NCBI GenBank assembly: GCA_964016885.1
Contig: OZ024741.1
Span: forward strand, 197,532,001-197,596,000
DNA from: Eledone cirrhosa
Taxonomy: Eukaryota
DNA length: 64,000 nucleotides
Direction of reading: 5' to 3'
In this document: one piece after another, positions 24,431 through 47,588 of the stretch
Layout of the letters: each line of letters opens with the position of its first letter
How positions within the stretch are numbered: position 1 is the first letter of the stretch
Made by a program: the position numbers and the translations under genes
The notes under the pieces: model-generated
The model's database searches: none
What the model was told of the DNA's origin: nothing
What the model saw: the letters and a program-made list of their open reading frames with translations, nothing else

Positions 24431-24483
24431 ATTTTATTATACATATTTCGGATGTACAACAGTACGTCCTCATCAGACAAAAT
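24431..24483 (-). ncRNA. Type I hammerhead ribozyme (family C, left arm)
   Basis: Reverse complement of 24591-24643. Confidence 0.88.
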
Positions 24484-35610: not shown

Positions 35611-35715
35611 CCATATATTATATATATATATCATATATTATATATATATCACATATTATATATATATCCAGTAATGCACTGGGTAATTGCTGGCCTTGTG
35701 CCTAAAGTAGAAACA

Positions 35716-35761
<46 letters not shown>

Positions 35762-35763
<2 letters not shown>

Positions 35764-37548
35764 GCGAGATACTGCAGAAACAATACTGCTCTGTTTTCAG
35801 CAATCCTGATATGGCCGATCTGGGCCGTATCAGTGATGTTAATCCCCAACACACTATATCAGACATAATGTTTGGCGCCCCTGATGTCTTAGCGGCAATA
35901 AACGAAATTAAACACAATTCAGCAGTAGGCCCTGACAGGTTCCCTGCTTGTGTCCTGAAGATGTGCCGACTCCAACTTGCATCTCTTCTTGCAAATCAGT
36001 GGAGGAACTCACTGGACACTGGCTATATTCCTGAAAACTTTCTGTCCCAATCCGTTGTCCCAGTCTTCAAAAAGGGAAATAAGTCCCTTGCAGTGAACTA
36101 CCGTCCGATCTCACTCATCTCTCATATTATCAAGATATTTGAGAGGGTCGTGAGATCACGAGTAACCTACTTTCTTGAAAGCAACGGCCTGCTGAACTCC
36201 AACCAACATGGGTTCCGTAATGGAAGGGACTGCCTAACGCAGCTCCTGCATCACTTTAACGATGTTTTGTAAGTCTTGGGAGAGGGCTCCAACACTGATG
36301 TCATCTACCTTGACTTCAGCAAGGCCTTTGACAGGGTTGATCATAAGATTCTACTGAAAAAACTATCCAATGTTGGTGTCTCTGGAAGGTTACTACAGTG
36401 GATCAAATGTTTCCTGACAGGCAGAACCCAGCATGTTGTAGTCGAAGGAGTAAAATCAAGCCCTGCCAAAGTCAGCAGTGGCGTTCCACAAGGCACTGTG
36501 TTGGGCCCACTTCTTTTCATCATTCACATTAATGACATTACTGACATCATCAAGCACAGCAACATCAGAATCTTCGCAGACGATTCCAAGCTCCAAAGGG
36601 TCATTAATAAGGTGGGTGGCCTGACTTGCCTTCAGTCAGACCTACTGGCTGTTATCCAATGGGCAGAAATGAATAATATGCTGTTGAATGAAAATAAATT
36701 TGAATTAATCCACTTTGTAAAAAAGGATGCCCTGAAACTACCATACTCTCTTTCTTCGGGTGAAACTCTAGTGGCATCTAATACCATCAGAGACTTGGGA
36801 GTAATTGTGGACAACAACATAAGCTGGGCCACTCTTATAAACAGCAAAGTTGATATGGCCCGCAGAATGTGTTCCTCGATTCTTAGAACTTTCCAGTCGA
36901 GAGATATCCACACTGTTATCCTTCCCTTCTCCACTTTTGCCCGACCCCACCTTGAATACTGTTGTCCACTGTGGTCATCCCACACGAAACAAAGTATCAT
37001 GAAAGTTGAAGAAGCCCAAAGGTCAATTACAAAAAAGATAGATGGCATGACAGGCCTTGACTATTGGAGTCGATTAGAAAAGCTCAAACTTTATTCTCTC
37101 CAACGTCGCCGCGAGCGCTACATTATCTGTATGATGTGTAAAATATTCCATCAGCTTTGCCCAAATGATGTTGGCATCAACTTTAGTGTACACCTAAGGC
37201 TTGGGCCCCGTGCTTATACGCCCACAACAAAAATCTCACTCGCATCACATAACAACAATACGGCACAATTATTTCACCTCAATTGGCCCTGCACTCTTTA
37301 ACATTACACCAAGACACATCAAAGCAGAGACAGACCCCATCAAGTTCAAGAAGTCTTTGAATAAATTCCTTCAAGAAATCCCGGATAAGCCTCCTACACC
37401 CGAATATGCCTCCGTAAACAATAACTCTCTGCTCGAGTGGGCCATGGTGCCCAAACACTGATTTGTAAGACTTCGCCATGTGGTGCTATTAAGTTAGACA
37501 TGGCCTGGGCCAATACTGGCCGAAACCTATTAAAGTTATCAAAGTTAT
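35762..37548 (+). mobile_element. 5'-truncated CR1-like LINE (RT) inserted in (TA)n
   Basis: NYRPISLISH, QHGFRNGR, YLDFSKAFDRVDH, GVPQGTVLGPLLF, FADD; one stop at 36270 and a late frameshift; tail TAAAGTTATCAAAGTT. Confidence 0.92.
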
Positions 37549-41371: not shown

Positions 41372-41541
41372 CGCTCTATCTCAAAATTATTTTTGAAAAG
41401 CATTAGAAATGCGCAACCGGTAAAACTTAAAACCAAAACTGAATACTAAACAATACTATTACTAATTCTCACTTATTCCTAATTAAACTATTTTTCACTG
41501 TGAACAATTTGTTAGCATTTTCTATTCCGTTTACCAATATA

Positions 41542-41647
<106 letters not shown>

Positions 41648-41907
41648 ATATATATAATATATATTATATATATATATATAATATATATAATATATATAAT
41701 ATATATAATATATATATATTATATATATATTTTATATATATATATATTTTATATTATATATATACATATATTATATATATATGTTATATAAATATATATT
41801 ATATATATATACATATATATATATTATATATATATATATTATATATATATATTATATATATTATATATACATACATACACACACACACACATACACACAC
41901 ACACACT

Positions 41908-41949
<42 letters not shown>

Positions 41950-42075
41950 AATGTATATATAGTGTATTTTGCAATACACTGTATGCTTAATTGAAAGCAT
42001 TTTGAAGACCATACGCTATTGTTTTAAAATAGTGACAATGACACTTATTTACATTTTCAGCAAACAGGGGAGATA

Positions 42076-42120
42076 AACTGACAGAGTTCTGTTTCGTACT
42101 TTTTAGTACTTATCAAAGCT
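42076..42120 (-). ncRNA. Hammerhead ribozyme with U3-A8 core (TTGATAA)
   Basis: Minus: AGCT-TTGATAA-GTACT-aaa-AGTAC-like stem II-GAAA-CAG-aact-CTG-TC^AGTT. Confidence 0.78.
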
Positions 42121-42396
42121 CACTATTCCTCCTGTTTGTTGAAAATTTAAATAAGTGACATTGTCACTATTTTAAAACAATAGCATATGGTCTTCAAAAT
42201 GCTTTTAATTAAGCATACAGTGTATTTCAAAATACACTGTATATACATTCATATATATATCGCTATTTCAGAGCACCAATTCTAAGTTTCAATTCCTGCT
42301 GGACCGGCGACCGGTCTGTATAATCAGTTCCTGATTATTATTGGAATTTTATAAGAACCAAACACACATAATTTTCAGCAAACAGGAGGAGTAGTG

Positions 42397-42443
42397 AGCT
42401 TTGATAAGTGCCAAAAAAAGTACTAAACAGAGACCTGTCAGCT
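42397..42443 (+). ncRNA. Second TTGATAA-core hammerhead, GAAA mutated to TAAA
   Basis: AGCT-TTGATAA-GTGC..GTAC-TAAA-CAG-agac-CTG-TC^AGCT. Confidence 0.68.
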
Positions 42444-42610
42444 TTATCTCCCCTTTTTGCTGAAAATTTAAATAAGTGCCATTGTCACTATTTTAAAACA
42501 ATAGCGTATGGTCTTCAAAATGCTTTTAATTAAGCATACACTGTATTGCATAATACACTATATATACATTCATATATATATCGCTATTTCAGAGCACCAA
42601 TTCTAATTTT

Positions 42611-42694
<84 letters not shown>

Positions 42695-43188: not shown

Positions 43189-43273
<85 letters not shown>

Positions 43274-43600
43274 CTTACAATTATCTTACAATATATATAT
43301 ATTATCTTACAATTTCTTTTTCAACATATATTATATACGTATTTGTGGTCACACATACACTGATATGCTTGCCCTCACATATGTACTTACGCACACATTT
43401 TTTCACTATACACATGCATTTGTACATACACACATATGTACATTTGTGAGTGAATATACACACATTTATACACATACCCAAACTATATTTCCTTATTTTA
43501 TTTTTATATATCTCTTGCATTACTTTTATTTATATATTCTTTTGCCCGTTAAACTTTTGCCTTTCTTGAAGAGATTTTTCAAATATTTCACTATGTTTTA

Positions 43601-43678
43601 AATTGCCTTGTCCGACGAACGAATCAGGACGTTTCTTGTATTCGTCTTATTCGGGAAACCTCTGGTAATGAGGTAATT
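43601..43678 (+). ncRNA. pLTR hammerhead ribozyme, CCGACGA core
   Basis: AATTGCCTTGT-CCGACGA-aCGAAT..ATTCGg-GAAA-CC-tct-GG-TA^ATGAGGTAATT; 11-bp stem I. Confidence 0.85.
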
Positions 43679-43892
43679 ATATTGTATTCTTTATAATACA
43701 TTAAATTTAGCGCTGGTACATAGAGCACTCTTCACTCCTATGACTTTTTCAATTTTCAACGGAAACTTCAATACTTATACAGCTCCCAAGGGAATGATCG
43801 TAGCATATTCTACATTTTTATGAGATTGGTACCTTCCAGCCCTTTTAAAGTCCAGCACTCTTCAGTCAAAAGGATTTTAACCAATACTGAAC

Positions 43893-46017
43893 ATGGATAA
43901 ACATAATTTGGATTACTCCATCAAGAATATCCCAACACCTTCTAACACTTCCTACACTAAAATGCTGATAGACAAAGTAGAGAAAGTTGTTAAAAGAATG
44001 AGATGGAAAGCTTTGATTTTCGATGAACACTTTAACACGGACTCTACAGAACATTTTGATATCGGGTCTCATAAATACCCACAAAGAGTAAAAGATATGA
44101 CTGCTTTTGAACTGGACTTAGTTAATTTAATCAACCAAATCAAATTCCGTAAGTACTCTAACCCTTTTCAATCTAAACTATCTAATGATATTTCAATATT
44201 CAAATCTTCTAAAAATAAGTTCATTTTCTCTGACAAAACTAAAAACTTATACGAAGTTATTAATAACTTCCATGACCAACTCTTAACAGATAACATCACC
44301 TCTAAATACCAAATAGCTAATATAAACACTTATAATACTATAAATAAGGAAGCTAAAGAATTAGCTAGTTTTTTTAAAATAGACAATAGAACAGAAAAAC
44401 TTGCTAAACGTAATGCCTATATCACCCTCAAAGATCACAAACCTGATTTTATTAATCGTCCTAGTTCTAGATTAATCAACCCTGCTAAGACTGAAATCGG
44501 TCTTGCTAGCAAAAAAATATTAAATAATATACACAAACATATTAGAAGTAAGTCTGAATTACTCCAATGGATAAATAGCTTTTCCGTAGTACATTGGTTT
44601 AATAATATTAAAGATAAAAATAGTTCTAGATTCATCCAATTTGACATTGTAGACTTCTACCCGTCTATTACTCACCCTCTTTTAACGAAAGCCTTAAATT
44701 TCGCTAGAAAGTTTATCAATATTTCTGATATTGAAGAGAATGTCATTTTGCATGCTAGAAACACTCTACTTTTTACTAATAATGACACTTGGGTAAAAAT
44801 ATCTAACCCAGAGAACCCATTCGATGTCTCAATGGGTTCTTTTGACAGTGCTGACGTGTGTGATTTGGTCGACCTATTCCTCCTACACACACTTAAAGAG
44901 AAATTCCCTAACCATACCTTTGGGCTTTATCGCGACGATGGTCTAATACTTTACCATACCACCATAGGCCATATCTTAGATAGATTAAGGAAAGACTTAT
45001 TAAAAACCTTCGCTAGTTTTAATCTTAAAATTACTATTGACACTAACCTTTCCAATGTTAATTTTCTAGATATAAACCTAGATCTGCCTACTGCTTCTTA
45101 TAAACTATACCATAAACCTAATGAAAATTTAAAATATATAAATAAAGGCTCTTGCCATCCTCCTATAGTTTTTAAAAACCTTATCCCTAATATTAGCCGT
45201 AGGATCTCCACCCTCTCTTCTTCAGAAGCTATTTTCCCTACTATAATAAAGCCCCTCAAAATAGCGGATTTAGCGAACCGATTAAGTACGTACCCAACAA
45301 TACTAACTCCTTTAAGCATAATAATAGGAAAAGAAAAATAATCTGGTTCACACCCCCTACTCTTTAGCAGTTAAAACTAATGTAGGCAAAACATTCCTAG
45401 AGCTCTTAGATAAACATTTCCCTAGAACATATAGATACTATAAGATCTTCAATAGAAACTGTGTCAAAATCAGCTACTCCTGCGGTCCCCCTATTAAATC
45501 TTATATCCTCAATAAGAAAATACCCAGAGAACATCAAAATTGCTCCTGTAGAGTCAAAAGTGAATGCCCATTACAAGGTAAATGCAACACCAAAGCCATT
45601 GTATATGCGGCTAAAGTGACAACCACCAGCAACAACCTACCATCCACCAGCGAACGCTATGTGGGTATGATACAAGACAAATTCAAAACGCGTTATTACT
45701 CACATGTCGCATCTTTCCGACATCCTGAAAAAAGATTTACAACAGCTCTGGCTAGCAGAATATGGGATTTGAAAGACCAAGGTATCCAATATAAATTGGA
45801 TTGGTCAATTTTGAACCAATCTAAAGAATATGCAAGAGGAACAAGAAGATGCGCACTCTGCATAAGTGAAAAATATTGGATTTTACATAACATTAAATCA
45901 CCAAAAACCTGCCTAAATGCAAAAACAGAAATTTTCACCAGTTGCCCACACATGAAATCACACTTGCTTTCCAGCTCATATAAACTTAACTCACTTTCAG
46001 ATACTTATCCTCCATAA
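43893..46017 (+). pseudogene. Penelope-like RT plus GIY-YIG endonuclease ORF, frameshifted near 45240-45360
   Basis: FSDKTKNLY, RLINPAKTEIG, QFDIVDFYPSI, SMGSFDSA, YRDDGL, FLDINLDL; C-terminus CSC..CPLQGKC..IVYAAKV..YVG..FKTRY..H, CALC..EK, SCPH. True start may lie upstream. Confidence 0.92.
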
Positions 46018-47260
46018 ACTCTTGTTCTTCACTTTCCTTAAATTACCCTCTTTACAGACTTCTCTTTCTGATTTACTTTTATTTTTATTTGTAACTTTAT
46101 TTTTACTTCACATCCACCAGTGCCCCCCACCCTGCTTTTTGATTCACTTACCTAATATCTTCACAATTCCACACATTTTACTTCCCCATTTTCTTTCACT
46201 ACCTGATATCACTTGTCACTTGCGTTTTCAACTCCAGATATATTCTGTTGTCTCTCAGCCGCTTTTATGTATGTATAATTTGTACTCATTTATTCATTCG
46301 GCTGGTTTTTAATTTGTATCTATGCGTGTGAGTGTGCATGTGTGTGTGCATGTGTGTGTATGCGTGTTTGTATACGAACGCATTCGTATGTGCGCGTGTG
46401 TGTGTATATGTGTGTGTGTATGTGTGTTTTTATATCTATGTTTTTTACATACTTATATATACGTGTGTGTGTGCACGTATATGTATATATATATGTATAT
46501 GTATGTATATATATGTATGTATGTGTGTATATGTATATAGTCGCGTACGTGCGTGTGATTAGATATACATGTGCCTATATATATATATGTGCTTCGTGTG
46601 TATGTATGCGCGCCTTTGTATGTGTGTACGCATGTATGTGCTTTTGTCTGTACGTATTTCTATATATATTTTTATATATATATATGTGTACGTACGAACC
46701 TATGTTTGTTTTCTATTTTCTCTAGTGTTACTTTATAATTGATAACCCCTCCCTCTTACTTTCTCTTTGATTTAAAATTTTTGTTTTATTCTCATATATG
46801 TATCGAGCCTCAGACTGACACTGCTTTGACTGATACACTCCCTTCCCTGTATATATCACTCGCATGTATGTGGTCGCGTGTGTGTGTGTTTATACGCGTG
46901 CTTTCATGCCTGTATGTGTATATATTTCAATCCTTAATACCGGAATCTGGATGTTCGTTAACTCTATTATCTTACAATTTTTTTTCAACATATATTATAT
47001 ACGTATTTGTGGTCACACATGCACTGATATGCTTGCCTTCACATATGTACTTACGCACACATTTTTTCACTATACACATGCATTTGTACATACACACATG
47101 TACATTTGTGAGTGAATATACACACATTTATACACATACCCTTACTATATTTCCTTATTTTATTTTTATATATCTCTTGTACTACTTTTATTCATATATT
47201 TATTTGCCCGTTAAACTTTTGCCTTTCTTGAGGAGATTTTTCAAATATTTCACTGTTTTA

Positions 47261-47338
47261 AATTGCCTTGTCCGACGAACGAATGAGGACGTTTTTTGTA
47301 TTCGTCATATTCGGGAAACCTCTGGTAATGAGGTAATT
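47261..47338 (+). ncRNA. pLTR hammerhead ribozyme, second copy, CCGACGA core
   Basis: Same structure as 43601-43678. Confidence 0.85.
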
Positions 47339-47588
47339 AAATTTAGCTCTGGTACTTACATAGAGGACTCTTCACTCCTATGACTTTTTCAATTTTCAAC
47401 GGAAACTTCAATACTTATATATATATATATATATAATTTTTATGCTTACATAGCAGAACGTATGTGTAAAAAAACCCACACCGTCTGTGTATTACTCGTG
47501 ACAGTATCTTGTTAGCTCAATGTACGAAAACAGAGCCGTTATAGTAAGAGAAAACAAATAGCGCTTATAACAACAATCGATTTTTATT

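Follow-up and report, generated by a model that had tools for sequence, protein, structure and literature searches.

Natural hammerhead ribozymes with U3-A8 in place of C3-G8 have been described before. Perreault 2011 (PMC3088659) reported the first natural covariation from C3-G8 to U3-A8, gave "several" examples that were called rare, and noted that the variant is active in vitro as well as natural. Cervera and De la Pena 2014 (PMC4209133) tied ~1,300 U3-A8 motifs to the Cercyon elements of Schistosoma, and in a mutational scan of one type III ribozyme (Roberts 2023, PMC9901934) the G-C swap was the only active swap. Metazoan non-LTR retrozymes have been proposed to be non-autonomous Penelope-like derivatives, and those of amphibians work as dimers (Cervera and De la Pena 2020, PMC7229834; Li et al. 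2026, bioRxiv 10.64898/2026.07.22.740005). PMC7151607, PMC6155905, PMC6765202, and PMC3884650 contribute nothing decisive. A search of post-2015 main texts on U3-A8 and retrozymes found no paper that contains U3-A8, although other retrozymes with this core may already be published. A single U3-A8 observation is ordinary because the variant is already published, and the novelty that an earlier sequence-only reading of our locus had implied does not hold.

The locus described here lies in a 64,000-nt stretch of the Eledone cirrhosa genome (contig OZ024741.1, hereafter the window), which is microsatellite-rich and animal-genome-like and belongs to an assembly of 3.0 Gb. An insertion bounded by an (AT)n/(AC)n microsatellite on the left (41537..41961) and an (AC)n microsatellite on the right (42614..42680) is made of three pieces. 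Copy 1 (41939..42147, minus strand) is an inverted, 5'-truncated repeat copy that covers unit positions 79-290 and is 92% identical to copy 2. A partial upstream unit (42131..42291, plus strand; unit positions 161-321) gives a partial tandem resembling a pseudo-LTR, the only tandem arrangement at the locus. Copy 2 (42292..42612, plus strand, hence inverted relative to copy 1) is a single full 321-bp unit with stop codons in all six frames and no coding role seen. It ends in a 31-bp "tail" (42582..42612, plus strand), a Penelope-like feature seen at one end of many insertions.

Both copies carry TTGATAA at the core of a type I hammerhead, as the sequence-only reading had reported. The motif of copy 1 (42073..42123, minus strand), recognized by folding and by a relaxed type I hammerhead scan, comprises in order the helix I 5' strand (42123-42117), the core U3-U4-G5-A6-U7-A8-A9 (42116-42110), helix II with its loop (42109-42096), G12-A13-A14-A15.1 (42095-42092), helix III (42091-42082), U16.1-C17 (42081-42080, with the cut predicted after C17 at 42080), and the helix I 3' strand (42079-42073). 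The motif of copy 2 (42396..42444, plus strand) has its core at 42401-42407, helix II at 42408-42423, helix III at 42427-42438, and C17 at 42439, after which the cut is predicted. All three helices form in local folds, with probabilities for helices I/II/III of 0.94/0.98/0.75 and 0.97/0.98/0.72 for the two copies, and folding z-scores over ~110-nt stretches are -4.8 and -5.9. The helices stand in type I order with helix I open. Helix I is interrupted by an internal loop, and loop 2, of 5-6 nt, has A as its last base, features that might allow a tertiary contact between loops 1 and 2.

Copy 1, like the family, has the core letters U4 G5 A6 N7, A9, G12 A13 A14, A15.1-U16.1, and H17; every catalytic position is present, and its private changes fall in loop 2 and loop 3. 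Copy 2 lacks the G12 that a type I core requires: in the relaxed scan of the window it reads TAAA instead of GAAA, which copy 1 retains. This G12 to U change (42424..42424, plus strand) is private to copy 2: G makes up ~99% of contig depth at copy 2 position 12 in three of three runs from one sample. The sequence-only reading mentioned neither this loss nor the inverted orientation of the two copies. G12 is the general base of the hammerhead ribozyme, and A8 would retain the 2'-OH that serves as general acid, and the change at 42424 is expected to abolish cleavage. Two catalytic guanosines are also named, in its own numbering, in PMC9901934. Copy 2 further carries two changes in loop 3 and, in helix II, a G.U; with G12 lost, it is a broken ribozyme whatever its 3-8 pair.

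The window copies are aged insertions, with terminal branches of ~0.04 versus <0.01 in the youngest arrays. Their private loop-3 changes weaken the palindrome of helix III (-10.0 and -5.9), and in folding, a transcript across the whole insertion forms one long duplex; the locus is for both reasons predicted to be likely inert.

Rfam gave no hammerhead match at the gathering score for either copy in a search over the window. Copy 1 had a weak match to Hammerhead_HH9 (18.2 bits, E 0.24), and the other matches were microsatellite-driven miRNA noise, without a hammerhead among the 150 listed of 206 rows. This test is insensitive, because the window's canonical hammerheads were missed at that score too; the claim that canonical searches would overlook the variant holds for CUGANGA descriptors. 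Hammerhead-like motifs with canonical CTGANGA cores lie at 24476 (minus), 24598 (plus), 32999 (plus), and 43090 (plus), the first two forming an inverted pair. The window also contains a broken LINE-type reverse transcriptase frame at 35706-37301 (plus strand; Pfam RVT_1, E 2e-18 for 36273-37298).

We asked how the 3-8 pair is distributed among relatives of the repeat. Exact genome matches with identical flanks and helix II numbered 536 for U3-A8, 86 for C3-G8, four for U3-G8, four for C3-A8, and seven for other combinations, the combination of a purine at 3 with G8 being left out of the queries. Reversed-pattern controls gave zero matches, which argues against chance as the source of the TTGATAA motif. 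U3 was joined to a base other than A8 in five matches (four of them U3-G8), and a base other than U3 to one other than G8 in 10 (four of them C3-A8); by arithmetic on these counts, ~77 U3-G8 copies would be expected under independence. Dropping the flanks raised C3-G8 only up to 100. With positions 3, 7, and 8 left free, a pattern for the related GC-stem subfamilies matched the genome 2,870 times; the first 100 listed comprise 96 U3-A8, one C3-A8, one A3-A8, two G3-A8, and no C3-G8. Among 83 copies chosen regardless of core, 64 had U-A, 10 had C-G, six were mismatched, and three were gapped. Of 63 aligned rows, 61 have a Watson-Crick combination (U-A or C-G) at positions 3 and 8, as do 622 of 637 exact genome matches, and it is from this covariation that we infer pairing of positions 3 and 8 itself. 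For the in vitro activity of U3-A8, the source that Perreault and colleagues rely on is reportedly Przybilski and Hammann 2007. The swap is common to thousands of copies, and decay private to this locus is rejected.

A tree was inferred from 105 of 111 extracted copies, six being left out for a deleted core or an inverted pseudo-alignment. It has two clades, one of C3-G8 copies (34 rows) and one of U3-A8 copies (71 rows), with support of 100/100, and all 13 mismatched cores are tips within their parent clade. With 536 U3-A8 copies against eight single-swap copies, the proposal that U3-A8 became fixed in the family rather than arising by decay is borne out. The nearest canonical sister core is CTGAGGA or CTGAAGA, not the CTGATGA from which the swap had been described. 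Rooted trees were made without columns 3, 7, and 8 and with subsampling to 69 and then 39 rows, the root being either the diverged copy L164 or a 310-bp relative with a CTGATGA core at 64-69% identity. Under either root, C3-G8 forms are placed outside the U3-A8 clade; with the 310-bp relative as root, a single clade (99/96) holds the family's U3-A8 copies and lies next to the C3-G8 clade. A back-swap, in which the C3-G8 sister would be nested within U3-A8, is ruled out by these trees. The 310-bp relative itself is a young tandem-array repeat (L286, L295, L304, L306, L309) with a C3-G8 core and a U.U mismatch at 10.1-11.1.

Both changes of the swap are common transitions and map to one branch. 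Some 17 diagnostic columns in and around the ribozyme separate the two clades, and because these change on the same branch, linkage of positions 3 and 8 there counts as one event and is weak alone. Two further copies bear on the history of the lineage. One is a distant lone relative (L287:1322-1451, minus strand) that has TTGATAA and a C.A mismatch at 10.1-11.1 and lies outside the U3-A8 clade; a single U3-A8 clade including it is rejected by an AU test (p 0.0002), and no second copy of its type occurs among 312 loci. It may represent a second origin of U3-A8 in the lineage or two chance transitions. At the other (L012:1093-1700, plus strand), a C3-G8 unit stands directly in tandem with a U3-A8 unit, which suggests template switching or recombination between subfamilies.

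After the swap, the helices kept changing in pairs. Within the U3-A8 clade, helix II runs through the series GUAC/GUAC, GCAC/GUGC, GCAU/AUGC, and GCUU/AAGC; helix I pair 2.1-1.1, which adjoins the core, went from U-A to C-G; and helix III is palindromic or near-palindromic throughout the U3-A8 subfamilies. We counted pairs on 63 rows, made up of 61 of 68 subfamily-spanning references and the two window copies. Paired cells amount to 96.8%, versus 34%-45% when slid, and two-sided changes to 130 versus 35.8 when shuffled, the rows being related and the comparison hence carrying no probability. Two-sided change affects 12 of 29 pairs, a number not above that in shuffles (147 of 500 as high). The 3-8 pair on these rows is U-A in 47, C-G in 14, U-G in one, and otherwise in one. 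Varying columns number 0 of 14 in the core and 17 of 30 in helices and loops, and the core does not differ significantly from the rest of the unit (p=0.13); this test is partly circular, as copies were filtered on core letters, and we do not rely on it. In the 83 copies chosen regardless of core, letters 4-6, 9, 12-15.1, 16.1, and 17 have no subfamily-level variants, only scattered changes and, at 11.1/12, decay of the CpG type; helix II columns, in contrast, vary in seven to 20 copies. Compensated change in helices I-III across subfamilies around an unchanged core is therefore not decay, and these patterns make compensation under selection likely in the U3-A8 lineage.

These patterns bear on a less favorable explanation, in which two common transitions crippled the source copy and the swap hitch-hiked on a dead or nearly dead ribozyme; the element would spread with no need of cleavage, and the helices would be kept for RNA stability or reverse transcriptase recognition. 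It would accommodate the single event on the family tree, and several observations lean its way: U3-A8 was not rescued in one published scan (PMC9901934), elements of the Naiad type spread while lacking canonical hammerheads (PMC8557442), cleavage was absent from eight of nine dimers of Xenopus retrozymes (bioRxiv 10.64898/2026.07.22.740005), and a non-catalytic fold is predicted for monomers of eight out of eight U3-A8 family copies, with helix III probability ≤0.01 in local folds. The absence of subfamily-level variants in the single-stranded core letters, with helix II varying, speaks against it, as does what follows from the rest of the genome.

We searched the genome, with the window's own subfamily excluded, using a loose descriptor (core, G10.1, 7-20 nt, C11.1, GAAAC), which leaves out canonical motifs that have GAAAT or different closing pairs. 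Matches, with those of a reversed control in parentheses, numbered 26,040 (347) for U3-A8, 4,969 (423) for C3-G8, 408 (225) for U3-G8, and 454 (433) for C3-A8, a ratio that may differ from the true one in that one family dominates, arrays inflate the counts, and the control is not composition-matched. The first 100 U3-A8 matches listed of the 26,040 fall into six families (69, 15, 6, 6, 3, and 1 members), the 15 belonging to the lineage of the window repeat. Apart from one related pair, the six share no similarity with one another or with the window family over 350 bp. Family representatives fold as type I hammerheads, mostly with a palindromic helix III, and in some helix I has 0-4 contiguous pairs. 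The largest of these families (L138-L165, e.g., L140:1501) is a compact U3-A8 hammerhead with a CCGG helix III, mostly found as short inverted pairs. Elsewhere, a 31-unit array of ~466 bp each (L166-L195; G000:C1:5738331-5752439) carries canonical C3-G8 hammerheads and ends in an inverted copy.

Among these first 100 listed matches, U3-A8 recurs in six families that make up five groups without detectable similarity to one another, and cores with a mismatch are close to control levels. Decay would not repeatedly arrive at the complementary pair and is an unlikely source, and we consider hitch-hiking on a crippled ribozyme improbable. The earlier proposal of compensation at the tertiary level is well supported, if indirectly, by helices that kept co-varying after the swap and by five other families that use U3-A8 with mismatched cores near background; the swapped core likely still permits RNA self-cutting. 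The two counts under this one descriptor are a warning that CUGANGA-based censuses can miss most motifs in some genomes.

What kind of element carries the ribozyme? The unit is 316-322 bp long, 34% GC, with stops in all six frames, and falls within the 150-450 bp range of non-coding, low-GC retrozymes. Across the 105 loci, partial tandems and inverted truncated copies recur, with 3' ends that have or lack a 26-31 bp tail and mostly run into (TA)n, so that partial tandem, inverted truncated copy, a tail near the 30-40 bp of Penelope-type insertions, and a microsatellite target are all represented. The genome also holds head-to-tail arrays of 316-bp units, including natural dimers and longer arrays with at least six units. 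The repeat fits the definition of a non-LTR retrozyme (PMC7229834; bioRxiv 10.64898/2026.07.22.740005), in the form of a protein-less Penelope-type retrozyme.

Alternatively, the repeats could be pLTRs, the 3' ends of an autonomous Penelope-like element truncated on its 5' side, and not an independent retrozyme, which would leave the ribozyme account unchanged. Their insertion geometry is indeed Penelope-like, and another U3-A8 family in the genome stands 343-519 bp behind a GIY-YIG frame in six of 12 copies, which identifies that family as a Penelope pLTR ribozyme. Five of its loci (L247, L248, L250, L217, L232) show a Penelope-like element with the U3-A8 hammerhead 343-421 bp behind the GIY-YIG frame and one or two contiguous pairs in helix I. 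Of 123 tail occurrences in our repeat, however, 66 are followed by another unit, 52 by a microsatellite, and five by other sequence, but none by a shared reading frame; a same-strand upstream GIY-YIG match accompanies only one of 100 lineage copies; and head-to-tail arrays exist. The unit has no reverse transcriptase and GIY-YIG frame between pLTRs. We hold the pLTR origin to be very unlikely. Searches of shared flanks, of sequence after the tail, and by tblastn with the neighboring element's proteins found no autonomous partner, and a pattern of tail plus start codon had 27 matches, with no reading frame in the 10 inspected.

That neighbor is a near-complete Penelope-like element at 43270-47420 (plus strand) with 90%-identical direct repeats. 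By their motifs, we take its frames at 43881-45341 and 45328-46017 to be reverse transcriptase and GIY-YIG; neither Pfam nor PDB returned a match for the frames. Each direct repeat has a hammerhead-like fold with the core CCGACGA (U4C), at 43612 and 47272. The element has no sequence in common with the unit and is thus not shown to be its partner.

Our main reading, which we put at about three chances in four, is that this 321-bp protein-less repeat with thousands of relatives likely keeps its 3-8 pair through the U3-A8 swap, so that tandem transcripts would still self-cut and Penelope-like enzymes would likely copy them back. Tandem transcripts would self-cleave into unit-length RNAs, and these would be copied back into (TA)n sites, likely by the enzymes of a Penelope-like element. 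Multimeric transcripts would cleave as dimers, via a double hammerhead, releasing the unit RNA, and the released monomer would be protected in an off fold. We infer cleavage, circularization by a host ligase, and reverse transcription in trans from published retrozymes. In predicted folds, helix III has a low probability in monomers because its bases are taken up by positions 3-5 and the helix I strand, and the palindromic helix III of the window's subfamily pairs with itself at -20.1 kcal/mol. The double hammerhead lies below two monomeric folds in energy in six of seven natural tandem pairs and is worse in one; the dimer fold is ≤4 kcal/mol from the free minimum in five of the seven and 8-12 kcal/mol above it in two. 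An off-state monomer fold combined with a favored dimer fold would point to dimer cleavage of multimers, release of units, and protection of monomers.

The off state raises the possibility that U3-A8 was selected as a weaker or switchable core, slowing cleavage or, through U3, tuning the off-state helix, protecting the unit-length circle, and giving an advantage over C3-G8 lineages. An off-state helix is predicted in all six subfamily representatives, the C3-G8 sister included. In later subfamilies helix III changes from CAG to CAA, which turns a U3.G wobble into U3-A, but this was one event, is also explained by upkeep of the palindrome, and is partly reversed in the youngest subfamily (CAT). 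The lineage has ~3,300 U3-A8 copies versus 100 with C3-G8, although copy number depends on many other factors; the youngest arrays are U3-A8, yet the young 310-bp C3-G8 relative and the 466-bp C3-G8 family form fresh arrays as well. We judge selection for a weaker or switchable core unlikely. A broader and still doubtful idea is that U3-A8 is the dominant working hammerhead here, having arisen from C3-G8 several times independently in Penelope elements and retrozymes and been favored for tuning cleavage or the off state. If true, surveys relying on CUGANGA would fall several-fold short in counting the hammerheads of genomes like this one, and its lineages would be a record of a catalytic-core fitness valley crossed repeatedly.

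The window unit resembles metazoan non-LTR retrozymes in its type I hammerhead, its ~300-bp low-GC (34%) non-coding tandem units, and a range from monomers to arrays (Cervera and De la Pena 2020, PMC7229834; Li et al. 2026, bioRxiv 10.64898/2026.07.22.740005); in the parts of these two papers used, no U3-A8 core is described. Circular RNA and cleavage have been shown for metazoan retrozymes, whereas for the window unit they are predicted. With Penelope-like insertions (Craig et al. 2021, PMC8557442), it shares the partial tandem, the adjacent inverted 5'-truncated copy, the 30-40 bp tail, and the (TA)n preference; unlike these elements, it has no reverse transcriptase or endonuclease frame of its own. 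U3-A8 was rare in Perreault 2011 (PMC3088659), whereas it is the majority form here under the descriptor used. The repeat is like Cercyon of Schistosoma mansoni (PMC4209133) in its core covariation, type I topology, and Penelope-type nature, and opposite-strand pairs 100-700 bp apart occur there too. Cercyon motifs, however, are minimal: they lack a real helix III, and their long helix II is bulged. In the window unit, helix I is long, helix II has 4 bp, and helix III is a palindrome of 10 nt. Other differences from Cercyon are that the unit is 321 bp and protein-less, that its C3-G8 sister can be traced, and that compensated subfamilies followed the swap. The contribution of this genome is a natural series from C3-G8 outgroups and a C3-G8 sister through the swap to those compensated subfamilies. 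The series supplies natural backbones, already matched, in which the conditions for tolerating U3-A8 can be examined; on this question, in vitro findings in the literature vary with context.
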